56,334 nt of DNA, taken from the NCBI GenBank assembly GCA_000320545.1, contig ADNK01003043.1, positions 1 to 56,334 of the forward strand, read 5' to 3'. The translations under genes and the position numbers were made by a program. This DNA comes from Bigelowiella natans CCMP2755. Taxonomy: Eukaryota > Protista > Cercozoa. Shown here piece by piece: positions 11,454 through 55,950 of this stretch. The notes beneath the pieces are model-generated. The model had not been told where the DNA came from. It did not search any database and worked only from the letters and a program-made list of their open reading frames with translations. The stretch's first letter is position 1. Every line of letters starts with the position of its first letter.

Positions 11454-14400
11454 AGCCATTATCGTTGAAAAGCTACAGAATATTGCTGCTCGTCTTTGTA
11501 GTCCGCATTCTGGTCATCAGCAGCATTTTCATAGGCGCTGCCAGCCTCGTTGCTTTTCTCCGGGGCGGCAGAGAATATATCATTGAGCGAGTCCTGGAAG
11601 CTGACGATTTCGGACATCCGAGGTGCCCTGCATTTGTCAAAGATTGGCGAGGAAGTGAGAGGCGGGGTCATCCGAGCTTTGCTCCGGGTGGGTTTGGGCT
11701 CAAGATGCAAGTTGTGTTACGCATCAATTGGAACGGCAAACAACACGGAGGGACAAAAAAAAATAAAGAAGATAATATGGCAAACAGGAAGTGTCGATGG
11801 CCTCGTATATCATGTGACGTCAGACAAGACGCCGAGGCAAGATTTTGTGGTATATTCGGTGCGGCGTATCATCATCTCTCCTGAAAGCTTCTCGCTATAT
11901 CAATCGGGGAAGTTGTGTATACCCGTCGCCATACGACGAACCAAATTTCCTGGATTGGGCTGCGGATTGTAGAGTAAAAGTCAAGGTCTAAACAACACTT
12001 CAATGGCGATTTCTCACAGTCCTTAGACGGCAGCTAGAGCTAAATATAACCCAGATATTTGATTCGACATGCTAACACAGATGTCCCTGTTCTCTTCCCC
12101 CCCCCCCCCTCATTTTATCATAATTATCATCACCACCATCACCACCACCCTACTATATCTCTGCATTCTCTACATTTTACTACTGACGTATGCTCTCCTC
12201 AAGGCGACTGTCTCTAGATGGGAATCTAACGTGTCGTTTGGATCCCCCCTCATCACCAAGCTTCTTCCGCCTCGGACTTAAGATCGATTTCGGAGCGGCG
12301 GTAGCGCTGTTATCCTCCTCCTCAATTACCTCTACTCGGATCGACGACTTGAATGGAAGCGCCCGCCCCTCGGCGCGGCCATCCTCCCCCCCCCCCCCTC
12401 CTCCCGCATAGAGAAGGTCATCCATGGCCGTCTTGGCGCCGGGAACAACTGGCGGGGGAGGACGTGTGCGGCGCAACGTGGCACTACCCCCGATATCACC
12501 GCTGCTCTTTGTGTGTGTTAACTGGCTCGTGCCGACTGTATTATCACAGCCGCCGCTCTCTTCGCCCCCCCCCGGCATCGCCTTCTGGTAAGCGGTGGCG
12601 GCGGCCGCGTCTGCGGCGGCTCTTTCCTCCTCCTTCTCCTCCTCCTCCTCCTCCTTCCTTTTCCTTGCGAGGACAGCCGCTGCGGCAGCGGCTGCCGCCT
12701 CGGGGGAGGGCAGAGGTGGAGCAGCGTTCCTCTCCGCATCCTTCGTCCCATTGTCATCACTGTTCGCCTTGGGATTGCCTTTGTTTATTCCCTCTGATCG
12801 TGTCCTCCCCTTGCTGATTTCGGTGGATGCTGACTTCGTCTTGGAGGTGCTCGAGGAGCTAGCAGCAGCTGCAGAAGAGGGGGCGGGGGCGGGGGCGGGG
12901 GCGGGCGAAGGCATGTCTCGACCCTACGAGGCATTATGTAGAAATCAGAGAAATGAGCAGCAGCGGAGACGGCGGGATCAGGTCTCAACTACTAAATGTA
13001 ATGAAACCGATGATGATGAGTATGATGAAGATAATGATGCGATTACCTCTTGCACTTTCCGGCCGGGAATCGACCCGAAAGTCGCGAGCTTGGGACATGT
13101 GCATAGGGAAGCGAGCCACGACTAAACGCACATACAAGGGAGAGAGAGGTGAAGGGAGAGGGGGGGGGAAGGGGAGGAGATATTTAAACTTCGTCTTTCA
13201 TGTTTCATTTGAAACAATTTTTTAAGGAAAATTCGAAAGATCGGTTTGGTTTCTCACGATACGATCCAGCAGCACAAGGATCAAAAGCTAGGCGCGTAAA
13301 TAGCAGCAATGCGCCTCTGGCAGATGATACCAGGAAATCGTCTTCACTGGGTGCTCGGAGATGATAAGTGCGTATACCGCTTGTGATTCTAAACCTGAGC
13401 GACGTAGTGGGAAAGGCGCTGTGTGACAAGTAGTACGATTCCTTCCGAACCAGCACAGGAAAAAGGCAAAGGCAAAAGCAAGCGCGGCATTCACAGCACG
13501 ATCGCTGCTCACTCATGGTTGGCGGCGTCCTTCGAGTCGGCGAAGAGCGTAGCGCCGTCGAGATCGATAACGCCCTTCGGCGTGACGTTCTCCTTGTCCT
13601 CGTAGTAGTGCAGCTTGTTTATTTGAAGCCGGCAGAATCGCTTCTTATAAGACGTGTTGACTAGGCCTTTCTTCAGAAGATATCCTGTTTTTGCAGGATC
13701 GCCGGAGCCTCCATCCCCCCCCCCCGCTGTGCCACTTGCCACCGCGATACTGGACTTAGCGCTTTGTGGAGCGGTGTTGTTGCCTGAGGGGATCGGTGAC
13801 GAAGATCCGCCCTGGTATGATATACGTGTTAGTGCTGATGTGAAGAGGAGGGTGGGGTGTTCCTGCTGCTGGCACTGGCGTTCTGTTTTTTGTCTTTCTT
13901 ATTTTCTATCCCGAACACACGTATATGCGAGGCGTACATGCCTTCCCTCCATGCATAACCCATCACAATATTGCACGCTACCCTTAACTGAGTGGCAGAG
14001 CGGTTTCCTTTTCCTCGAAACCAAGAGAATATCCCGGATTTGTTTTGTTGATGCTCCGCAGGATTCCCAGACCTGTTCTGTGCAACCTCCTCCATGTCCA
14101 AAATCTGGTTAAAAGCTTGGCGCAGCGTCCAAGCGTTGTCCTTGTGGTCGCGGTTCGTCCGGTGCACGGCCACCATGGCTTTCTCTGTGATAGGGCAGCG
14201 CAACAGAAATCACATCAGACTCAAGGAACAATGGTTCAAAACCCAGCCCAAAAATCCCCCATAAAAGGAGTAGATAGGTGAAGAGCCTTTGAAGCCTTAG
14301 TCCGAGATATTACGTTCGAAGTTGCGCTCACAGCTTTTTCTTATGATAAGCTAGATACTAGGTTGAAGCTATGAACGGCATGGACAGACGTCAACCGATT

Positions 14401-14789
14401 ATTTGCCGAATTTTTTGAAGATTTCTGTCCCCCCTGCCAAATCCGTTCGCTTTCAGACCGTAGAGCAACTCCTCCGCCAGACCACGGTAGACCCTTGCAC
14501 ATGCGCTGATCTGCATATTTATATACACACACACACGCACGCACACACGTCCACATACATGTGCATACATGTTCATTTAAAAACTGTACAATTATGTAAA
14601 AATGAATCTCATGAAAATAGCAAATGGACAACATATTCAACCATCCTTGAACTCCTAAGCGATTAAAACTAATGAATCCACCTTTCCATCGTTGTAGGCC
14701 GGCGCCCCGACGTCGATCGTGTCGCGAATGTCATTTTGAATCACGCTAAGCAACCCCCCCTGCTTTGCAAAAAGGCTATCCGTGGACAT
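10470..14789 (-). CDS. Signalling adaptor: N-terminal helical domain + PH domain + Pro/Ala/Glu-rich linker + SAM domain; middle exons (11450-12020) and last exon uncertain, could be two genes
   Basis: ATG 14789 MSTDSLFAKQ..IRDTIDVGAPAYNDGK|ISACARVY...AWTLRQAFNQIL. PH: KTGYLLKKGLVNTSYKKRFCRL..LHYYED..PKGVIDL..FRITSGIRTYHLRA..SWLASL (about 13050-13695). Pro-rich PRPPPGPYPGPPPP. SAM: ILGEEDLDEEDLFELERSDFKAMGLKYGQIVKLLKAI (about 10700-10860). Confidence 0.75.
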
Positions 14790-14943
14790 GCCTCCCTCGG
14801 TCGGTGCGTTTGCCAGCCAATTACACGTTTAATGCACAGAAAAATAGAGGAAGTAAAGCGACTCGGAAACGCACTTGCTTCTCCGTCGGCACTCGACGGG
14901 CTGGATGCCCTGCGTGTGCGCGACGCGACTCACGGCAGCAGAG

Positions 14944-15500
14944 ATGGGCATTCCAGAAAGCGGCAACATGCTTCGGCGATTTTGTTACGAAAACACGTAA
15001 ATTCCCATGTTTTAGGGTTAAAGTGTCCTGAATTCCGTGGACAATTTGGAATTGGGCTTAGCTTTCGACTGCGTCATCCATGTCGCACAGAAGAATCCAA
15101 TGGGGTTGTGAGGAGATCGTCGTTCCATCGCTGTCCGGCTGCCTCGCATGAGCTCTGTCTCTGCCGGCCGACGGATGTGAAACCAACGCTTCAATTCCCT
15201 CTGTTGCACAACTCTTCGCATTGTGGTGATGATGTGATGATCCAGAATTTGCTTTTGCCAAATGGACAAGCAATGCATTGTTCCCCTTGTGAACGATTTC
15301 CAGGAGAACAAAACCCACGTCGTTTGACGTGGTGACTTGCTGCAAACAGCATTGCTCATCAGCTGTTGGAAGGCAGGGTGAAAAGAGAAGTGCACAAGTG
15401 CAGTGAGGTGCAGCAAGACGCGATGAAGGAGCAAGTTGCGCAAGTCTTCGTGCCGACTGCAGAGTTCCGTGAACTTTGGTGCTTCCACGATGCAAGGCAG
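14944..15500 (+). pseudogene. Hypermutated pseudogene of unknown family
   Basis: ATG 14944 MGIPESG, intron-like segment 14963-15015 starting GCAACA and ending TTTAG, then about 160 codons with one TGA, 0 Tyr and about 10 Cys + 9 His. Confidence 0.65.
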
Positions 15501-16320
15501 TCCAGCAGTGGCAGTGGTTGTGGCCGCACAGCAGTGGTGGCAGCAAAAGAGAAGAAGAAGAAGAGAAAGTGCAAAAACGATGTTGGGAGGTGTTGGAGAA
15601 AGAGGGAACACCCAAGGCCATGAACAAGAGCGATCATCACAAGATCGAAAGATGACGTTGTCGTCAACTGTGCATCTTGCGAGTGACATCGTCATTGCTA
15701 GATTGCCATCATGATCATCATCTGCATCTTCGTCCATGTGTTGTGATGGACTGCTCTGGTGCTAGACATGCGTGCATCACAAGGAAGAAGCACACTGCAT
15801 GCATGACGTGCAGCACGAGTGCTGCACTGCAGATGCTGCTGACTGTCCACATTGCATTAGTGTCAAGCGTAAAAGTGCAGCTGTGAGATGACAGATGTTC
15901 AACAGCAATCAGAGCTCAATCATTCCGTCTAGCTGTTGCCGACAACATCGAGAAACAGAAAGCAAGCCTTCTGGCCTTGAAAATGCGCATGCGTGCCATG
16001 CGACTGCTGGAAAGTGAGAGAGCGCACACATGTGCTTGTGCTCACTACCGTCCATTCTGGCATTGTGAACACACTAGCACACGACAAAACGGGAGTAGCA
16101 TGCAGACTTTTCTTTCCGCATGCTAGCATGTTTGAAATTTGGCCACATGCGCGCTGCAACGGAATGGTGTGTTCAAGCATGCATCCTGTCCCGGTGACAA
16201 CGAGTGAGGCAATGTGAAGGGATGATTGTTGCAGACATGTGGCGTGATGTGATGCATGCTAGCATGTGCTGCACAGCTGACAATGCTGTGTTGTGTCCAT
16301 CATTGTGCACTGCTTCCATT
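15061..16320. other. TpA-depleted, TpG/CpA-rich hypermutated tract
   Basis: No TA in 15061-15698; about 10 in 1260 nt, 6 of them in CTAG. CpG abundant. Confidence 0.9.
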
Positions 16321-16326
16321 CATTGA

Positions 16327-19800
<3,474 letters not shown>

Positions 19801-19815
19801 TGTGTGCGTCCAATC

Positions 19816-20284
19816 TCACAGACATCTTTTCTCATTACATCGTACATGTTGAACAGATTTCTTCTGGGCCATTATGGTAAACATGAGAGCGCATCGATTT
19901 CGCTGATGCTCTGGAAGCCGGTAGAATCCATCGTCTCCCTTGACCATCGATTCCATGAACTTCCAATCCAGCATCCTATGTTCTTGAACCTTTTGGATGG
20001 TGAATCCAGCATCGATTAATGCCTGAATAATCTCGAAAAGACTATGGTTCCACTCATAAGTCCGTGTATTACAAAGCCGTTCATTTGACTCCATAGCAGT
20101 GTACGTGTAGCCAGAGTCGAACACCATCGGAGACTTTGTCTCAAAGTAAGGATAGGCGAGAAGTAGATCCTGTCCGCCCTTTTCATCTAGCTTTCGATCG
20201 TCATATCCTGACAAATTGACATGTCACTTATTCTGCTCTAATACGTGCTCTATTTGAAATTGTTGTTGTTGCTGTTGTTATTAT

Positions 20285-43199: not shown

Positions 43200-44400
43200 C
43201 AAAGTATAAGTCCATTTCGAAGGAGAATGAAGCGCGGAGCGACTCGGCTCGCGCAGCCAGCACAATTCCGCACGATGCACGACCAAAGCGCGGAAAAACG
43301 AGGATGTGCGTGCGCGCAATTTTGACACATCCAAATAAATTCTCCCGCCGCAGCATGCAACCACACATACTGCACAGTACACTGCTGAGCAGGACTGCAA
43401 TGGGCTTCATTCTTTGCTCACAATGATCACAATTCATCGATGTGCAAACATGCACATGCGCACTTGCTAGCTTGTTCTAGTGTTCAATGCACATGCGGAA
43501 TTTGCGCTACACAGAGCGATTCTCATGGATGGATGACACATTTGACAAACAAAATTCTCGTTGTCATGTGCGTTGATTTGGTTGTCACATGCTGAAGCTG
43601 GAAGTGTGCGTTCAGTGTGCTCAATCATCTATGATCTTCTGTGTACTACATCTAGACTGCAAGACATGTGTGTGTGTGTGTGTGTTGTGTGCGTGCATGT
43701 GCATGTTCGACCTACATGAATCCGAGGAGAACATCAGATCGATCAAGATCACTCCTGCTAGAATCTGAAAACAAGCCTGATTCGCGGTCAACTGGGAAAA
43801 TGTCGATGGCCACATGCAACGCATGCGCTGTGTGTGCTAGTGTGGTGGGCATCTCACAGCACGTGCATCCTCTTAGAACACTTGCATGCGCATGTGATGT
43901 CAAGTGCATGCACGCACATTCTGCATTCCTTCATTGTTTAATGGTTTTAGCGCAGATCTAGAGATGCAGATGCATGCGCGATCAATTGATGATCTCCTCG
44001 TTCCTGTGCAAGCAATTGAGATGACACACACAGACATGATGCATGGATCATTGAACTTGTAACACTTGATGATAGTTGTGTCATATTTTTTTCCATGATG
44101 ATGGACAACGTGTTGTCATGATGCATGCTAGCGTGTGATGCACATGTGACACAAGACACAATGCAATGTGACGTGCACATTGTACTCGTGTGAAATTGCA
44201 GTGTCCATCATAACATAGCAGTACATCTCATTGATGTACATCACAGACATGCATGCTGTGTACTTGTTCACCATACTTACGGAGTTAGCAGCGTAGATAG
44301 ATAATACCCTTAACGTGCAAGAATTCTCGTAATCATGTCGATTTGATTAACACATGATACTGCACATGAACATTCAGTGTGCTCAAGCATCTCGTGTGTG
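43200..44400. other. TpA-depleted, TpG/CpA-rich intergenic tract
   Basis: About 20 TA in 43381-44200 despite AT-rich composition, about a third of them in CTAG; dense CATG/TGCA. Confidence 0.75.
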
Positions 44401-45086
44401 CGTATTTACATAAATCCGATGAGAGTGACAGATCACTCTGAAATGCGAAGACAGACCTGATTTGAAAATGTCGGTGGCTACAACGCATACGCTACAATAG
44501 GTATCTTGCGTATGTATCCTCTATGTACATAGATTTGATATAAATGTAGATATACGCGATAAATTGTTCCCATATAAGCGAATATATGATGCATGGAGTA
44601 TTGAATACTTAATGATGATATCTTCTTTTTATAGAGTAGTATATGCCAACAAAATGTACAAGCTTCGCATATAATTCTCCATTGATGTCCTCCTCTGTAT
44701 AATGATGCTCCTCTTACTACTCAAGAGGGGCGACGATAGACGACGTACGGCGATATGTCACATATGAAGTTTCCTCCTAAAGTCAAGTTCCGTGAGAGAT
44801 GGAGATTAAACGACCTAACCAAGTACCACTGAGCTTAGTAATGCGTACATTTTATATGTTCCCTATATGTATATTAGAATTGATTACAATCATTGTTTAC
44901 CGAGTTTCGGTCTCTCCCCACCATCGAATCGCGATCGCCAACAACAGAGGCTCCTTTCATGTCCTGAGAGATTTAAGAATGCTTTAAGAGGCAACGCGGC
45001 GGAACTCAAACCCAACCTTGGCCCTCCCTCTCTTATCGTTCTAATTTCTCCCCTCATCTTCTGAGCAACCTCTCTCGTAGCTAAAT

Positions 45087-48000
45087 CTATGCGCGCGTGT
45101 GCTCTGGTTGAACGTTTATCCTCACCGTCGCGGAGCCGCGGGCCTTCATCGGGGAAGGCCCCTCCTTGCCGCTCTCGCCCTTCTTGTTGAAGATGACAAC
45201 CCGCTGCTGCTGGTTTTTCAAGAGGCAGTGCCACAGGGCGAAGTTGGCGAGGATGATCACGCTGAACATGATGACGAGGGTAACGATGACAGCAATCGTA
45301 TCGTCAGACAGCCCCTTGTCATCGTCGTCGTCCTCCTCCCCAACGCTCGGAGCTCCGACCAACGTCACCGTCCCCTCTCCATAAGAGCTTGCATCCCAGC
45401 CATTCGCAGCCGAGAACGCGGTCAGGAGCGCGGTCTCCACCTCCGCCACGCGACCGAAGGTGACCTGCAGGCTGATTGAAACGAGGGTTCCCGTCCCCAT
45501 GTTGGCTAGATCCGTCACCGTGACGCCCGACCTCGCCACGGCGAGGAGGGAGGCGGCCTGCTCGACTAGGGCGAATGTGAATCCGGCCTGCGCGGCCGGG
45601 CTGGCGCTGAAGTACTCAAAGTCAAACTCGACGTTGGCGACGATGCTGCTGACCCCGGAGGTCGGGTCGCCGTTAGGATATCCGATGCTGACGACGCGGC
45701 CGTTGAGGGGCTGCACGGGGCGGTTGGTGTTGCCGAACATGCTCGCCTTCTCCAGCCCCCGCAGCGCCCCGATGAGGATATCGAGCTGCTCCCTCGACAT
45801 GGTGATGGGGTTCCTGAAGACGTGCCAGTTGACGCCCTCCGAGCACGGAGGCGTGGTGAGAGAGCCCGGGTAGTTGTAGAAGGTCATATCCGCAGGGAAC
45901 ATCAGCGAAGGGTCGACGGTCACGGTGGAGAAGGTGTGCGACACGCCGGTGGTGCCCGGGAGCATCTGCCTCAAGGTGCGGGCGCTGGGGAAGCCCGGGT
46001 TCGCCTCCCCCTCCACCACCATCACCCCCAGCACCGCCAGGTTGCCCGCGCCGTCGACGTGGACGAAGTGGATCTCGGCGTCGAAGCCGCCGCCGTTGAA
46101 GAGGTGCTCCGAGATGTGGTGGAAGTGGATGTTGAACATCGAGTAATTGGTGCCGCCGACCTCCAGCGTGTTCCCGCCGACGCTGTTCATCACCAGCGTC
46201 TTGCCGTTGTTGGAGATGTCCACCCCAGTCGGGCCATACTGCATAGCGAAGGGCGTGGGCACGCCGCCCACAGCCTCGGACTCGACGATGTCGATGGGCG
46301 ACTGCTGCAGGCCGCTCTGGCAGATGGCCCAGGCAGGGTCAAGGGTGTGCCAGACGGCAGGTCCCTTATCCGGCTGGTAGTTCCAATCGGTAGTCGTGGC
46401 CGGCTGGTCCAGAGTCAGCACGCCCTCGTCCCTGGGGATCTCCGCAGGAGCTGCTCCTCCAGTCGCTGGGTTGCCTACGGGGGGGCCCTCCGCAGTGTAC
46501 CCGAGCGTCACCGTGCGGCCGTTCAGAGGCTGAAGAGGCCTGTTGGACTGCCCGCGGGGGCCTGCGGTTTCCACGGCGTTCAGCTGTGCCAGGAACACGT
46601 CGAGCTGCGCGGTGGCCATCTCGATGGGGTTGGTGAAGACGTGCCATACGACGTTCTCCGAGCAGGGGGGGGTGGTGAGCGATCCCATGTAGTGGTAAAA
46701 GCTCCTGTCAGCGGGGAAGAGGCTGTCGAGAGTGAGCAACTCGCTGGTCCTGTAGGCTACCCCCTCCTCGTCCGGCATGATCTGGGCGAGGCGCCCAGCC
46801 GAAGGGAAGGCAGGGTTGAACGCCCCCTCCCGGACCTGTACTCCGAGGACGGCGAGGTTCCCGAGCTCGTCGGCGTGGACGAAGTGGATCTCCATGGGGA
46901 AGAGGCCCCCGTTGAATGCGTGCTCCGAGAGGGTATGCACGTGGAACTGGACCAGATTCCAGGAGCGCCCGCCGATAACCACGGTGTTATCGACGGCGGC
47001 GAAGTCAAACACGAGGGAGACCCCGGTGTTGGTGACGGAGAATGGCGCGGGGCTGTAGTTGAACACGATGGCGGTGTCGACGCCCCGCACGACATCTAGC
47101 TGGACTATGTCAATGGGCGACTGCTGCAGGCCGCTCTGGCAGATGGCCCAGGCGGGGTCGAGGGTGTGCCACACAGCCGGCCCCTTATCGCTGTCATCGT
47201 AGTTGTACGAGGTCTTCGTTGGATCCGCCCCCTCAAGGACGACCGTTCCGACTGCCTGCGGAGGCTCAGGGCCCGGGACGAAGGGGGGCTCGACGGTGCC
47301 GTTGTTGTTGAGAGGATCATCGCCAGGGAGCGGGTAACCCAGGTACACCGTGCGGCCGAAGAGAGGCTGCACGGGGCGGTTGGTGAGGCCGGTCTCACTC
47401 GCATACTCGAGGTTCTGCAGCCGGTCCAGGAATATCGACATCTGGTCCTTCGAGAAGGTGATGGGCTCTCGGAACACGTGCCACTCCACGGCCTCCAGGC
47501 AGGGAGGGGTGGTGAGCGAGCCCTTGTAATGGTAGAAGGAGAGGTCGGAAGGAAACAGGCTCAGGATGTTCTCAATATTGAAGCTGAACGTGTGGGTGAT
47601 GCCGGTATCCCTGGGCAGCATTTGGTCGAGCTGGCGCAGGTCCGCAAAAGCAGCATTCGGAGCTCCCTCGGTGATCATCACGCCGAGGACAGCGAACTGG
47701 CCGATCGAAGGGCACTCGTGCACGAAGTGCAGCTCCATCGGGAAGCTGCCGCCGCTGAAGAGGTGCTCCGAGGAGTGGTGAAGGTGGGCCTGGAGGAGGT
47801 TGCATCGCAGGTTGCCGATGTCGGCGAACCCATCCAGCTCGAGGTCAAACTGGATGGTGTGCCCGTTGTTGATGACGATTGCGTCGGGGTTGCCGTAGCT
47901 CAACGTGATCGGGGTGATGATGCCGGGCTGGACGGTGTCGATGTCAATATCGATGGGCGACTGCCTCTGCCCGGTGCCGCACACCTCGGCAAAAGCGCTC

Positions 48001-49331
48001 CAGTTTGCAGGGCCGTTCGGTCCCATCGTCCAGTCGTACGTCGTCGCGGTGGAGATGGCGTCGAAGTTGAGCAGTCCCACGTTCTGTGCAGGCGGGGCTG
48101 GGGCGGGACCTCCACCACCAGTAGCAGGAGCGGCGGGGCGAAGGCCGAAGGGCGATTGCTGTTTCGAATGTAATCGGGGTATATGTAAGGTGAGGATGTT
48201 AATGCTCAATTAGGAATTCTAATCTATCTCACACACATGACGTGAATTTAAATTTTTGATTACCCCGACAACTACGGTGCGGCCGTTCAGAGGCTGTACT
48301 GGACGATTGGTCTCGCCTTTCTCCCCAGCATCGGCTAGATTCTCCAGAGAAGTGACCAGAATCTTCAGTTGCTCCCTCGAGAAGGTGACGGGGTTTTGCA
48401 TGACGTGCCAGCGGACGTCCTCAGAACATGGAGGCGTGGTCAGGGAGCCATTGTAGTGATAGTATGACCGCGTGCCTTCGGTGGGGAGGAGATCAAGCAG
48501 ACGAAGACCGAACGTCGGCTGCGAATATGTGGTTCCAGCAGCATCAGGGAAGATCTGTCGCAATCTGTCATCGATGGGGAAGGCAGGGTTCTCAGCCCCC
48601 TCGACTGCCATCACGCCGACGACAGCGAGGGCTCCATCCGCGTCGATATGCACGAAGTGCATTTCAACCTGAAGTGTGCAAAGAAGTGAGTTACTTTCGT
48701 GCGATTCCTAGAATGGACAGACTATCTCTCTGGCATTGGATTGCATTAATCAAGAAATCAAACGGGGTTTGCGAAGAGACCGGGAAGCTTCCTCCATTGA
48801 AGGTGTGCTCCGAGCGAGAGTGCATGTGCATCTGGAGAAGAGTGAATACTCGGCCGTCGATGCTCATCGAGTTTGGGCTCAGGTCGTTAAAAATCAGCGT
48901 CTTGCCCTGTTATGTTTGGAAATATGGCTAAAGTTAGTTCAGCATCTATCTCAACCAACGAAAACCATTGATTACGGTGTTGGAAACGGAGAATCCGGAG
49001 GCGACTCCATAGTTGAACAAAATCGGGGTTTGTACTCCAAGAACCGCAGTTTGGGCGACGATGTCAATAGGAGACTGTTCGAGTCCCGATTGGCAGATCT
49101 ACAAAAGAATTTAAGTTCAGCTCCATTTGTTATCAAGAGACGCGATCTTCTGCTCACCCCCCATGCAGGATCCAAGAGGTGCCATACGTCTGGGCCTTTG
49201 TCCTCCTTGTAGTTGTAACTCGTTGCAGTGCTAGCTGCTTCGATAGTGACTGTTCCATCAACAGGACCTACGCTGTCGAATGCGGAGACGGTTGCAAGGC
49301 CGCACGCTAACAAGGTCAAAGTCCGCTGCAT
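45087..49331 (-). CDS. Membrane-anchored alpha-carbonic anhydrase with four tandem catalytic domains
   Basis: Signal peptide MQRTLTLLACGLATVSA. Four copies of C..G..QSPIDI, HxH..SEH...G, E.HFVH, Y.GSLTTPPC.E.V.W and N.RP.QPL.GR. C-terminal TM IAVIVTLVIMFSVIILANFALW. Confidence 0.96.
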
Positions 49332-51682
49332 CTTAACCTGATTCAAAGAAAGCATGCAGCGGCACGATGTGAGCCAGAGGATATAGGAAAGTGAACGTTC
49401 GCTCTCCTCAGACAGCTCATGATCATCTAGGTGTGCGGGTTAGGGGATGAGTTTGGCCTCACAGGCGGGCTAGGCTTTTGAGCTCTGCGGGCCGCGGGAT
49501 GAGGACAGGTTCAGCGTAGCGACGGGCTCTCTTCTTTGCATTGTCAGGGTATCCACTGAAGCAATCTCGCGCAGCACCATTTTCAATCGACCGACAGAGA
49601 GATTCTTGTGGCTCCGACCACGAACCAGAGCGGTTTCGCGCAATCCCGGCTCGACCGCCAGGAGATTTTCTTTCGCCGGGCTCCTTTCGAGTGTTTCTCT
49701 TGGTGCGGCGGATGCTTGTCTCTCCTTCGTTTGGTGACTGGAGTATATCGAAATGCCAGTGGCAGGGGGCCGACGAAATTGGGATGAAATCCACTGTTAT
49801 TCTTCCGAGAGACAATTATTAATTGTCTCTTTTGGAAGGCAAGTGGCCTTCTAATTTTCAAAATGTGGCCGTAAACAGCAAACGTAGCCAAGATTCACTT
49901 CCATTTTTCTGCGAAACGATCCGTTTGCTGTATACCCACCCACGTGACACGCGCTTTTGACCATGAAACATCGCATTTTCCATGACGCACACGAGCGAAC
50001 AGTCTTGTTTTGCGATCGTGACCTAAAAATAGAGCTTTTCCGTGCAAATCGGGCCAAATAAAGTGTAAGATTTGCTTCGATGCTCAGAGCACACTTTGCT
50101 TAAAGCTTCGGGTCATCTTCCATAGTGCACGTAGTCTTGCGCAGTCTTGGTGAAAGGGGAAATATGTGAAAAAAATAAGATTTACGAGACGATTGTCTAA
50201 GGTGTTGGCTTCGAACTCATGTCGCAGTCAAAAATTCCATTATGTTCGTGCTCCCTAAGCAAAGCCGCTTGCGCTCTATCCACGTTCAAGCGACGTCGTC
50301 GCCGGGCGGGAACAAGCAAGCGGGCGCGAACGGATAGGGGAGTTCCTTTGGAAGTTAATTGTTCCTCTTCGGTTGGGACAGGGGTCGAAACTCCCATGGC
50401 CAACTTCGCCAGCTGTGAGTGGTTGCTCTCCTCTGCAATACGGCTATCGATCCGTAGCGCGTCACTGGACAAAATTAGCGCTTTCAGCTAGGTTGTGCGA
50501 TGCGTGAAGAATGGTTAAAGGATGTGGATCACTATGCAAACACGCGATAAACTACATGTATATGTGTGCTGCGTGTATCATACATGTTTAATCTTGCATG
50601 ATAGACATGTAATATAATATATATACTATATATGATATTATTGTGTCTATTATTTGCTTCATATGTGTGTTTGTGTTTGTGTTGTGGTACCTGGATGCTG
50701 GAAAGGTCATGGAATGGGGCATTCATAAGCAGCTTATGAATAATAAAATGGCTATCATTCCACATTACTACAGAAGCAATTTCCTTGCATCAATTCGTGT
50801 GATAAAAATCTTGAGTTGATATGTGTTAACCATACACGTAAGAGTACCAGTTTTGACTGCTTTAGGGTAAAATTTACCGGATGCCAACACATTACAGAAA
50901 GATCTGATGAGTACAGTTTAGGGATAATCTTCAATTTTGCTTGCTGATAGTTGCAGTAGTCGTCACTGACGCTACGTTCTTAGGATGCCATTATAGCACT
51001 ATGCGTTCTGCTCTGTTACGCATTGTAATATTTATCTTGTGATTCTCATCGATCGCATTCATGTTGCGGTATACCATTCTGCCCATACTAGCATAAGTAT
51101 GTTGGCATTCGAAGTTGATTGGTTGATAGGAGCGCATTCATTCGCTACATATGTACGTGAGTGTCCCCGCGCTGCGCAGCCAAGCGCGTGCATGATTTTA
51201 TGAATTCACGCTTGTCACCCTGCAACAATGGCATGCTGCTGTGCTCTCTCACTACTCCCATGCTGGCATGTGCTGTGAAGCTTCATACGCGAGTGCCATG
51301 CACTAGCTATGTTTAGATGTACTTACACAACCTTACATCACCAATGATAATAGACACAGTCATAATGCATTTGAACATATCGAGACATGTAGACACAGTC
51401 GTGCTACAATCGCACAAAGTAAATCTTGATCTTTTTCAGGTGCTTATAGATTCACATCATGCGAACACTTCATTTAAATTTACGCAATATCATTCCCGTC
51501 TCCATCTAGTTCATTGTGTGCAAAGGAAAAAAATCGCCCCAAGATTTGCATTGTTTTATTGTTTTCATTACCATGTCAGAGAGGGATACGTTTCTAGTGA
51601 TGCTCTATCCTTCCTGCCCACTGACCGTCGAACCTTCCGCACCTGTCGCGAGTCGTGTATCTTTCCTAGCTTTAACAACATA

Positions 51683-53989
51683 TCAATACCTGCTGGATGA
51701 GTTTGTATCTTGAACCCTAACGATTATCTCCAGCCGGTCTTTTCTGTACAGCACTTTGTAATGCTTAGAGAGCTCATACGAGGGGATTCTCCCGCGGATG
51801 TTGCCGTCTCGAGCTCGGATCAGCCAGTCGTGCATCAGATCCATAGACTTGTGAGAAGGAAGGGGAAGCGACCACCGCTCCATGAGCCTTTTGAAAATCC
51901 CAGGCCACATAGGCTTCGACGAGTAGATCCACGGATTCAGCGGCAGCGAAACGGTTCTCTCCTCGTCGTTGACCTCGACAGTCCCCCAGTACGCCTCGAG
52001 CTGCGCGCGGAACGACTCGGAGAGGAACTCAAGATGGTCAGAAAGGCGCTCCAGGCCCGGGATGAGGAGGGGCATATTAGCGTGGAGGAACGGCAGGACC
52101 TCGTCCCGCATCTTCCCTCGATCGCACCATTTCGGCGTTGAGTCCCATAGGTGCGGGATACCTAGATAGTCGGCGTCGTGGTACAGCTGTGCCTTGTTCA
52201 CGCGCAAGAGCGGCCTCCAAATCACCACGTCTTGCTCCTCTCCGATCTCCGCCATGCCGCGCAGTTGCTCGTACTTCTGGCCTTTGGCCACGTTTGAGAG
52301 CAAGTTCTCCCAGGTGTCCTGTCGGTTGTGGCCAAGCAAGACTGGATTTTGCATTATCATCTCATGTGTGATAGGGGCCTCCTCCTCCCCCCCCCCCTCC
52401 CCTCCGTGTGCTCTCATCGTCACCCGGAGCGTTTCTGCAATGGCAGCCTTGTAGACGTCGAAGCGAATCTCGCGGGTAATCTCCTCGTAGAAGCTCCTGT
52501 CCTTATCACGCGTCCGCTGAACCTCGGATATCCGCCGGGTAAACAGCGGCACGTCGAGCATTCGACACCAAGCTTCAACGAAACTTGCCTCGTGGTCCGC
52601 AGTGATGCGGTTAGCATAGTTAATGTGCACAGCGACGAGCACAGGTTTTGGCTGCTGCTCGGTAGCTCGAATCTTCTCCAAAGCACACTTTGCAGCGAAA
52701 AGCAGCGCCATCGAGTCAACGCCACCTGACACCGAGACCGTCAGTACACGCACGCCGCTGTCGGTAGGCTGCTCAAGCTGTGCCTTGAAGAAGCGGCAGA
52801 CCTCCTTCACGGTATCCAGCTCATACACGTACTTCCCGTCTTGGGTTTTACGGTCATTCACGGCCATAAGTGTCGTATTGATATCGGGGGTAGATTCGAG
52901 GATGGGTCGGAAACTCTCCCAACTGGCCCCCGCGCCCACGGCGGTACGCTCACGTTTCTGCCCGGCGGCTTCTAAGCTGACCATCAGGATGCTTTCCCGG
53001 TTAGCTACTTTGGCCTGAGCTTTCAACGTCGCTTTCTCGAACCGGTTCCAAAGAGCCTCGTCCTCTTCGCTGAGGCCGCCTTGCGCCACTCTTTGCTTCA
53101 CGAGTTTACGTTGCCACTGCCTCACGTGCTGGAGGGCGTCAGCACTGAAGAGGTGCCGCCAGGGCATCAGCAAGAATACCTGCCAGCTCGTCGGCCATCG
53201 GTAAACCTCATTGAGCCGATGTTGTAGTAGAAACCTCGTGCAATTAACAGCGTACGGCGATGCGATGTCCACAACTTCTAGAGCGCTGTGCAACCGTCGA
53301 TAGTGCCGCGACACCTGATCCCACAGAACGACGTGTGCAAGGAGCTGGTCCGAAGGCAAACTACGGAACTCTTTCTCAAGGGAACCCGCTTTCGTTCCGA
53401 GCAGACTCTGTGGAATTGAGGAGATTTCAGGCAAAAATTCTGCACATATTTTCTCGTCGAAGCGTTGATCCGTGCTAAACCAATGCCTGGAGCTTTCGAA
53501 CCAGAGAGCCAGGAGCCGGCTACACGTGGATTTCGACATCAACCAGCTCGGGCGCGCTTCTTCTGTTTGACTTCCTTCCCCCCTTTCTCCCACTGGTTGA
53601 GCCCTCTCCATCCCTGCCCCCCCAGAACCCCCAGCAAAGCCTTCCAGATTTGCCTTTGGCGGACGGAAGGATGATAGCCGGGATGAAACTCCAGAGATGC
53701 CTCCCAAGCCCCATTTTCCTGGGAAAACTCTTCTGGGCAGGTTGGTAGAAAGCCTCTGTTGAGTGCGGCCTCGAATCTTCACCCTGGCCCTGGAGGTGAA
53801 CGTCGGCCTTGAGCAGCCCACCCCCGCGGTGGTTATCCCCCCCCTGCCACCAACAGCTTTCGCATCAGCGCCGAGGCAGCAGCCGCCATTGTCCACCTCC
53901 CCGCAGTGGCTCCGCCAATTTACGAGGAAGACCCAGACTATCAGCCAGCGCCAACAAACCCATCCCTCGGAGCAGCGGGGGGGGCGCAT
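51683..53989 (-). CDS. tilS: tRNA(Ile)-lysidine synthetase (PP-loop) fused to an N-terminal DUF924-like helical domain; intronless, probable bipartite plastid leader
   Basis: VSVSGGVDSMAL, VHINYANR, R.IRFDVY, LGHNRQD..EN, IWRPLL, DSTPKWCDRGKMRD. N-terminal WF..FDEKI..VVLWDQVSRH..FLLMPWRH. Likely start MRPPRC at 53989 with a hydrophobic stretch and an Arg/Ser/Gly-rich segment. Confidence 0.9.
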   Translation of the reverse strand: MRPPRCSEGWVCWRWLIVWVFLVNWRSHCGEVDNGGCCLGADAKAVGGRGGITTAGVGCSRPTFTSRARVKIRGRTQQRLSTNLPRRVFPGKWGLGGISGVSSRLSSFRPPKANLEGFAGGSGGAGMERAQPVGERGEGSQTEEARPSWLMSKSTCSRLLALWFESSRHWFSTDQRFDEKICAEFLPEISSIPQSLLGTKAGSLEKEFRSLPSDQLLAHVVLWDQVSRHYRRLHSALEVVDIASPYAVNCTRFLLQHRLNEVYRWPTSWQVFLLMPWRHLFSADALQHVRQWQRKLVKQRVAQGGLSEEDEALWNRFEKATLKAQAKVANRESILMVSLEAAGQKRERTAVGAGASWESFRPILESTPDINTTLMAVNDRKTQDGKYVYELDTVKEVCRFFKAQLEQPTDSGVRVLTVSVSGGVDSMALLFAAKCALEKIRATEQQPKPVLVAVHINYANRITADHEASFVEAWCRMLDVPLFTRRISEVQRTRDKDRSFYEEITREIRFDVYKAAIAETLRVTMRAHGGEGGGEEEAPITHEMIMQNPVLLGHNRQDTWENLLSNVAKGQKYEQLRGMAEIGEEQDVVIWRPLLRVNKAQLYHDADYLGIPHLWDSTPKWCDRGKMRDEVLPFLHANMPLLIPGLERLSDHLEFLSESFRAQLEAYWGTVEVNDEERTVSLPLNPWIYSSKPMWPGIFKRLMERWSLPLPSHKSMDLMHDWLIRARDGNIRGRIPSYELSKHYKVLYRKDRLEIIVRVQDTNSSSRY

Positions 53990-54099
53990 GGTAGCCGGTG
54001 CTTCAAGTCGTAAGAGTGAGACTTGCTGAAGTATTAGCGCTGTGGTTTGTTGTCGCAGAGCAAAAATGAATGGCGTTTTATGGATAAAATAAAAGGATG

Positions 54100-54376
54100 T
54101 TTTTCTGATGACCGAACTGCACAACGTCGTGGGTGCAGAAGCAAAACCCAGGATGAGAATCTCAGTGGCCGCGCTTGCGCGCATGCTTGTAGCTTGTGCT
54201 GGCTTGCATGGAGGCATCTGCAACGCTTCGGATGGATTTAGAATGCGCAGCTTCGCCCAAGTGGTGTGGTGTTCACATGTGATCCAGTGATGACTGCATC
54301 AATGTGGTGTTCATTTTTCTTCCGTCACGTACCCGTCGCTCACTCGATCAGTGCCAGAGTGAGGAGACACGCTTCG

Positions 54377-54410
<34 letters not shown>

Positions 54411-54900
54411 GTGCATGTGCACATGCAACACAATGACACGTCACAATGCAAAGAAGCAGCGCTGGCAAAACTTCCTCACCATCAACCCCTGAAACGCGCT
54501 CTGGCTAGCTAGCTAGCTGGCTACTTTGATTCGATTCAAAAAAAATGAAACGTTCTCCAGCAAGCAACAAATGGTGCACTTTGGGCAGGCCGCACGTGTC
54601 TTGCGATGACAGACATGTAATGTAATTGCGTGCGCGCAACATGATACGCAGGGCTACCAAGCTAGCAAGTACACGGCCGCGTGCATTGAGTTAACAATGC
54701 TGCTGTGGCTCGATGGCATCGATGCGGTCCGCGACGAGCATGCAAGCACGTCGTGCACGACACAGCGCAGCTGCGCACAGCAATTGCCTGACAGCGACAC
54801 GTAGCTCATGCACAAGGTGCCACAGCATGCATTTTCTGAGTGCATGATAGCATTTAGTTCGAAACCCCGGAATGAGCACGAGCTTTGTCATGTCGTAGAA
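54100..54900. other. Partially TpA-depleted intergenic tract
   Basis: TG/CA-rich; several 60-nt lines have no TA; gctagctagctagc retained at about 54504. Confidence 0.6.
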
Positions 54901-55011
54901 ACGCCACAGCAAACAGTGCATCCAAATGGTTCTGTTTTTCTCTGCCAGCCGGCCACATGATTTTCACATCGCTAGATCGCACAAATGCACATCGAATTAT
55001 GTCTCTCACTA

Positions 55012-55950
55012 TTACTTTGTGGCCTTGATCTCGGTCTTTCCCGTCTTCAAGAATTTCTTTATGTCGACAACCTGGGGGAAAATACAACTTTGATTGAGGT
55101 ACACTGAACACATGCAGGCCCTCTACATTAAGACACCATTCTTGAGAAGGGAACAACTATCCTGTCGCTCCCAATGCTTCTATGAACTATACGATACTGT
55201 GATATCACACACACTCTCTCTCTCCTTCCCGCTCCCTCCCTCCCTCCCTCCCTCCCTCCCTCGATAATACCCAGTCTACGAGCGCATTCTCCGTCTTTGT
55301 GCGGAAGGTATGTCTGCGAACAGATATAGTAAGCGATATGGCCAACGCGTATACAGAACAACAACTCAACACTGCAACGAAGGGATAAAGGCAGAAGATG
55401 TTGTTGTCAAGACGAATATAATGGAGCTGTGTTGTATGATGCTGCTGCCGCTGCTGCTTCTCCCACATTTTCGTCCCCGATCCGAAGAACCCTGACGTCG
55501 CCTCTTCAATCTCAAACGCGTGCTGGTCAATTTTCGGAGCCTGCAGAAGGCAAAGGAGGGGGAAAGGGGAGAGACAGCTCTGTCAATCTGGGCCTTCATA
55601 CGAAGAGAAATGAGCAGAAAAGTAACATCGTTCATGCGTGCGAAATTGCCGGAAACCGGCCATTTTCATCAATTGAAACAGCAGCAATGGCAGCGCCATT
55701 TCTCACCAAACGTATAACGGACTGGTGCAGCTGAATGGAAGAATGGGCTGTGCTAGCGTCCCTGATCATTTAATAAGCAAAGAGGTGCACAGAACACTCA
55801 TATAAGGATCTTCGTCGGCCGCCGTTCCATTAAAGATGATACGGGGCATGCACTTCACGTTGTGTGTTCGAGGCGAAAATGTCACCCCAACGACCTGCTA
55901 TTCATGACGTGCATGATCCCGGAATTTGTGATGACGCAATACATCTGAAT

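Follow-up and report, generated by a model that had tools for sequence, protein, structure and literature searches.

Repeat-induced point mutation (RIP) of fungi consists of C>T changes, creates TpA dinucleotides and requires a duplicate. In Bigelowiella natans, hypermutation of the type TpA>TpG/CpA, affecting both strands, has been reported from mutation accumulation (Mettrop et al., bioRxiv 10.64898/2026.01.13.699255). According to the main text of this preprint, 231 of 302 nuclear mutations, found in 11 of the 15 lines, fell into two integrated viral regions and were nearly all TpA>TpG or TpA>CpA; at two regions that are silent or viral, and only in some of the lines, de novo mutations at TpA arose about 1000 times faster than the background. 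The same text reports 324 TpA-depleted CDS and 124 genome-wide clusters, many of them unannotated, and puts forward ADAT2/3 as a hypothetical enzyme. A literature search retrieved no other paper on the TpA hypermutation process. Deaminases of the TadA/ADAT2-3 type and the A-to-I mRNA editing of the fungal sexual stage (PMC11156358) are further related systems. Passages of PMC11702641 yielded no usable deaminase context.

Here we describe a saturated new instance of the process already described in B. natans, located in a stretch of 56,334 nucleotides (contig ADNK01003043.1, forward strand; referred to as the window). A protein encoded in the window matches a JGI Bigna1 model at 100% identity and an Amorphochlora protein at 47%, which identifies the DNA as nuclear DNA of B. 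natans. The features considered are the following.

14682–14883, minus strand: transcribed first exon of a divergent PH-domain gene, forming the left limit of the TA-poor block (an RNA piece ends at 14883).
14944–14962, plus strand: putative first exon, whose ATG at 14944 lies at a distance of 61 nt from the point where the 5' end of the divergent PH-domain gene was mapped.
14963–15015, plus strand: candidate intron with donor GCAACA at 14963 or canonical donor GTTACG at 14984 (32 nt) and the shared acceptor TTTTAG.
15016–15623, plus strand: likely dead reading frame of 201 codons with 0 Tyr in its translation, an in-frame TGA at 15333–15335 and a basic run, KEKKKKRK, near its end; no homologue found in the searches described below.
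15060–15698, no strand assigned: TA-free core of the hypermutated tract.
15329–15349, plus strand: possible tiny intron bounded by GT..AG, with a length of 21 nt if it starts at 15329 or 18 nt if it starts at 15332; it would remove the in-frame TGA and may be due to chance.
15621–16326, no strand assigned: TA-poor, strongly TG/CA-rich non-coding tail, recognized by its composition, in which the ubiquitin-fusion gene has its transcribed 3' end (RNA contigs from position 16098 and from 16205).
16327–18267, minus strand: ubiquitin-repeat fusion gene without introns, expressed and located within the TA-poor block, with silent TpA depleted and Tyr kept (RNA contigs; orthologue in Chlorarachnion reptans).
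18570–19760, no strand assigned: second TA-poor, TG/CA-rich tract by composition, upstream of the ubiquitin-fusion gene, forming the right limit of the block of about 4.9 kb.
43474–44879, plus strand: old non-coding tandem duplicate used as internal control, with a TA-poor copy (43474–44246) and a TA-rich copy (44260–44879).

The core at 15060–15698 contains no TA over 639 nt, compared to 37.8 expected from base composition, and is flanked by TAs at 15059 and 15699. The probability of such a run is about 8e-9 after multiplication by the window length, and the gap is the longest for any dinucleotide in the window. Observed/expected ratios at 15001–15500 are 0.10 for TA, 1.51 for TG/CA and 0.79 for CG. 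Loss of TA extends from about 14.86 to 19.76 kb, i.e., over a block of about 4.9 kb which includes the TA-free tract and the ubiquitin-fusion gene; left of about 14855, TA is frequent. Assembly error is not the cause, since a single contig of the DNA run, which may be the source of the same DNA, spans 14300–16500 with identical letters. Four sequence runs over the locus showed no variant letters, in a tract where almost no TA remains to mutate.

The cut-offs of the preprint (rho TA 0.43, rho CA+TG 1.52), applied with our own implementation and window phase, are passed by three of the 56 one-kb intervals, including 15001–16000 (rho TA 0.13, rho CA+TG 1.67) and 19001–20000. The block passes in two of its five intervals, the three between them failing, and hence does not form a run of at least three consecutive passing windows, the rule which the preprint applies to clusters rather than to single CDS. 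Another TA-poor, TG/CA-rich tract (54090–55030; rho TA 0.44, rho CA+TG 1.66) is located immediately upstream of a TilS-like gene (51683–54298, minus strand), an intronless DUF924 + PP-loop fusion with a counterpart of 47% identity in Amorphochlora amoebiformis. Other genes in the window comprise a GC-rich frame of 1040 codons (45087–49439, minus strand) that encodes three domains of the alpha carbonic anhydrase type and probably a membrane anchor at the C-terminus; more carbonic anhydrase-like frames come after it. A short TG/CA-rich motif, possibly the end of a small repeat, is shared by 16245–16309 and 44119–44151 (88% over 33 nt) and occurs in two other contigs of the DNA run.

The data support A>G changes which affect TpA on both strands and turn it into TG and CA. 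A>G mutation of both strands had been proposed in a preliminary description of the locus, and agrees with the de novo spectrum reported in the main text of the preprint and with an excess of 35 vs 1 in the duplicate pair. At the locus itself the direction is indicated indirectly, by TG (68) and CA (57) both being plentiful in the tract of the reading frame, because no ancestor or paralogue was found; internal controls were used since no intact copy of the locus is available. The two copies of the tandem duplicate are about 71% identical, and their alignment, with TA versus TG/CA scored neutral, reached a score of 212 as compared to 122 for the best of 200 shuffles. At the 59 TA sites of the TA-rich copy, the other copy has TG (21), CA (11), TA (6) or other dinucleotides (21). 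TA-type differences numbered 35 (23 TG-type and 12 CA-type) versus 1 in the opposite direction, in an alignment that is gappy and has no outgroup; a transition-weighted alignment gave 27/34. The same transition was seen at 15 of 233 A/T sites outside TA. The immediate adjacency of a TA-erased and a TA-rich copy suggests that the boundary of mutator action is sharp.

Decay of CpG also produces TG and CA, and CG is below the window background both in the frame (26 vs 34) and in the tail (28 vs 43), as is CC/GG in the tracts. Methyl-cytosine deamination (CG>TG/CA, Arg>Cys/His) combined with ordinary TpA avoidance, in the absence of any A>G process, might thus be considered. However, TA is reduced to a tenth of expectation while CG is much closer to it, seven CGY codons for Arg are still present in the frame, C>T changes would make TA rather than remove it, and the duplicate pair sets TA against TG/CA. 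Moreover, TA>TG/CA changes make no CG, so that an AT-rich ancestor would be expected to yield low CG values even without deamination. We therefore consider this explanation highly improbable.

Recounting of the frame from 15018 to 15500 (161 codons) gave 0 Tyr, 10 Cys and 9 His, as compared to 3.7, 2.4 and 4.7, respectively, expected from the genes of the window, and reproduced the composition of the preliminary description (0, about 10 and about 9 in about 160 codons); the peptides quoted there, AMHCSPCERF, EVHKCSE and LWCFHD among them, are present in the translation. The in-frame TGA at 15333–15335 had not been mentioned. However, this amino acid pattern is not specific for the frame. Tyr is absent from all six frames because TA is missing from the DNA, and with Cys counts of 10/10/10/5/13/7 and His counts of 9/2/2/10/6/13, several frames are equally Cys- or His-rich, so that the pattern alone cannot show a gene. 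The same mutator, acting on a stretch of intergenic DNA that was never coding, might have generated long Tyr-free, Cys/His-rich frames by chance, since erasure of TA removes TAA and most TAG codons. Consistently with this possibility, Cys and His are still more frequent in all frames of the non-coding DNA further downstream, and two antisense frames contain no stop. Of 2000 dinucleotide shuffles, 25% yielded a frame that had one stop or none (4.6% if plus frames are counted). The codon-model score of the frame (–0.14) is slightly below that of one antisense frame (–0.08); it lies above the values of non-coding tracts (–0.4 to –0.8) and below those of real genes (+0.04, +0.22).

Codon phase argues against a stretch that was never coding. 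Within 15018–15620, CAY (10 of 15, P=0.009) and TGT+CAT (15 of 23, P=0.002) concentrate in the frame, and TGA avoids it (1 of 15, P=0.019), TGY not being enriched (13 of 34, P=0.33), while base periodicity is apparent for 15018–15332 (P=0.038; 0.15 overall); all of these tests were selected after the sequence had been seen. In addition, the ATG, the acceptor and the position at a divergent promoter are gene-like, and the composition differs from that of the flanking non-coding tail: the excess of TG+CA is gene-sized in the frame (109 vs 76) and far larger in the tail (175 vs 96), which fits coding ancestry followed by AT-rich non-coding ancestry. A coding origin of the frame thus appears probable, and the frame is likely the remnant of a dead gene, either host or foreign. 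That the stretch was never coding is unlikely, albeit the most serious competitor.

Searches for relatives of the frame did not identify an intact homologue bearing the ancestral residues in the protein, viral, metagenome or atlas searches, a result that would also be expected of DNA that never coded for a protein. A word-based protein search with the natural translation gave no match at E≤1 among 39 candidates. HMMER, run over 1.84 billion representatives, returned three matches, one unnamed repeat protein and two bacterial LapA/RTX adhesins; all are tandem-repeat proteins whose scores were summed over 7–13 weak stretches, and they were rejected as repeat artefacts. Best matches to Pfam (12 six-frame readings, E 0.015) and PHROGs (7 readings, E 0.014) were likewise rejected. 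Viral and metagenome contigs contained no homologue of the frame, and the best score in the protein atlas was 0.79 (recognition 1084). A single-sequence fold had a pLDDT of 50.5 and was without Foldseek match at E≤0.001 in PDB or BFVD, which is uninformative. The family and homologue searches gave no match of the tract to a viral or transposon family, and a comparison for terminal repeats at the block edges was marginal, one direct match out of 20 comparisons barely exceeding the shuffle maximum (77 vs 73), and was not counted as evidence. We consider it probable that the loss of TA is due to the TpA-targeted A-to-G hypermutation known in B. natans, and that the frame is what remains of a gene of host or foreign origin.

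The first intron had been described as having the right phase and acceptor and a donor altered from GTA to GCA. Its start (GCAACA), its end (TTTTAG) and its phase were found as described, and the acceptor at 15015 is plausible as judged from the sequence; as evidence for a GTA>GCA change, in contrast, the donor was not upheld, an intact in-phase GT being present at 14984. Given the ATG at 14944 and the acceptor at 15015, there are three in-phase donors, namely GCA at 14948, GCA at 14963 and the intact GT at 14984; GCA occurs 23 times in 14884–15500, and without any intron the frame is open from 14676. A GTA>GCA change is therefore possible, but carries no weight as evidence. The putative intron at 14963–15015 retains three TA. 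Likewise, the designation as an intron-bearing host-type gene is unproven, considering the canonical alternative donor and the failure to find a homologue. Tiny nuclear introns may occur in B. natans; a paper dealing with them was not found in the literature search.

Transcription of the region was assessed from three RNA runs. Two RNA contig sets, which cover both neighbours and contain a spliced GT-AG joint at 14511–14681, have zero coverage of 14884–15510, noting that RNA contigs show presence and cannot prove absence. In the third run, represented by raw reads with about 6% of the reads sampled, only the right neighbour was covered, which is weak evidence. Low-depth RNA contigs at 15511–16047 indicate that the 3' part is not wholly silent. 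Expression and splicing of the locus as an intact gene, which would have contradicted the fossil-gene view, was thus not observed for 14884–15510 in any of the three runs. Since the sequence allows in-phase introns to be placed, and since only three RNA runs, one of them at about 6% of its reads, were available, the locus might be an intact orphan gene rich in Cys and His that is expressed under other conditions; its first intron would be of the GC or GT type, and a tiny second one would remove the TGA. Nevertheless, TA is missing at silent and cross-codon positions and from the non-coding tail as well, and the RNA contig sets that include both neighbours have zero coverage of 14884–15510; an intact gene is accordingly hardly to be expected.

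Duplication had been suggested as a possible trigger of the process. The DNA run, whose contigs likewise cannot prove absence, contains no second copy of at least 80% likeness, and one contig spans the tract; the locus is thus single-copy in this run, making a recent duplication an unlikely trigger. This state agrees with the single-copy viral region in the main text of Mettrop et al.

The ubiquitin-fusion gene within the block is expressed, and the C-terminal part of its product is 75% identical to a protein of Chlorarachnion reptans. The product comprises three tandem ubiquitin-like repeats, where its relatives have one, and a domain in common with fungal entries named “integral membrane protein”, together with a short ubiquitin C-terminal remnant. 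A diverged paralogue family (50% identity) includes another Bigna1 model, indicating an old paralogue of the gene in B. natans. In the ubiquitin-fusion gene, T occurs at third positions preceding A in 18 of 97 cases, compared to 135 of 251 elsewhere (P=2e-9), the deficit being spread over the entire length of the gene; Tyr remains at 2.3%. Among five control frames, a silent T-before-A deficit was mild in one (carbonic anhydrase, P=0.02) and absent from four. Two of 17 polarised single-step changes are of the type expected from the mutator, Tyr>His (CAT; Tyr in three of three close relatives) and Val>Ala (GCA). TA-type amino acid differences amounted to 5 of 52, as compared to 1 of 51 in the TilS control, which is not significant (P=0.20). 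The only DNA relatives available for a control of silent sites, four distant loci of 34–45% identity, were left out. In the ubiquitin-fusion gene, which stayed under selection, TA was probably lost for the most part at silent positions; alternatively, the silent TpA deficit may reflect selection against UpA, the mRNA being well expressed.

In four tracts picked for their TA loss (15061–16326, 18570–19760, 43380–44200 and 54090–55030), the numbers of sites with TAG on 0, 1 or 2 strands are 20, 27 and 22, compared to expected values of 117.6, 63.5 and 8.7; CTAG persists in all four tracts (22 vs 8.7 expected). Among silent NTA sites of the ubiquitin-fusion gene, TA was found in 6 of 13 cases before G and in 5 of 38 before other bases (P=0.02). 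Sparing of TAG was observed neither at the NCT-A sites of the gene (4 of 21) nor in the duplicate pair, where several changes from TAG to TGG rule out an absolute sparing. Support for an exemption of TAG from the mutator is thus mixed.

These observations raise the question of how far the mutator reaches. It is conceivable, though doubtful at present, that its action goes beyond foreign DNA, and that small blocks of native genes are swept by it, one gene being killed and an expressed, vertically inherited neighbour silently scarred, with TAG being disfavoured (target T-A-H). If so, B. natans would possess a DNA A>G mutator coupled to the silencing of loci, whose former reach could be reconstructed for each gene from its synonymous sites, and the context disfavouring TAG would narrow the list of candidate enzymes.

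As a possible course of events, the block would have been silenced episodically, and an A-to-I deaminase, hypothetically ADAT2/3, would have acted on either of its DNA strands, inosine being fixed as G at replication. The frame at 15016–15623, without selection, would have lost every TA, turning Tyr codons into Cys or His codons, and the ubiquitin-fusion gene, kept under selection, would have lost TA mainly at silent sites. From the counts given in the main text of the preprint we computed a rate of about 1.1e-5 per TpA per generation. At this rate, the erasure of 38 TA would take about 3e5 generations, a time in which a stretch of 640 nt should acquire 0.02 indels. An indel-free frame is thus predicted by the known process and only bounds the age to less than about 2e7 generations; the fast episode that had been deduced from the scarcity of indels is what the published rates predict.

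The locus represents a saturated end-point example of natural genomic A>G hypermutation at TpA. The refinements it offers are a likely collateral effect on a host gene that is expressed, and a possible exemption of TAG, which might help to identify the enzyme. It also serves as a warning that Tyr-free, Cys/His-rich open frames in the B. natans genome can be artefacts of TA erasure.

Like the targets described in the main text of Mettrop et al., the locus belongs to B. natans, was affected at TpA on both strands, and is single-copy and transcriptionally silent. Unlike the viral targets of that text, it is a tract of about 1.3 kb in a block of about 4.9 kb among ordinary host genes, in which we found neither a match to a viral or transposon family nor terminal repeats; moreover, the silent-site signature is seen in a gene that is expressed and has an orthologue in another chlorarachniophyte, and CTAG survives. 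Silent TpA loss in an expressed neighbour and survival of CTAG are absent from the main text of the preprint, which does not contain the words TAG, synonymous, intron, pseudogene, trinucleotide or flanking; the locus or a wider context may already be included in its Tables S2, S6, S8, S10 and S11. RIP resembles the process in imposing a local, dinucleotide-specific load of transitions on two strands, by which reading frames are killed quickly. It differs in its opposite chemistry and in its need for a duplicate, whereas at the B. natans locus TA is absent and the DNA run shows a single copy. TadA/ADAT2-3-type deaminases and fungal A-to-I editing (PMC11156358) share the chemistry and the U/T at the –1 position; however, fungal editing acts on RNA, often at UAG, whereas at the locus described here it is the DNA that has been changed, and TAG is apparently the context least affected.
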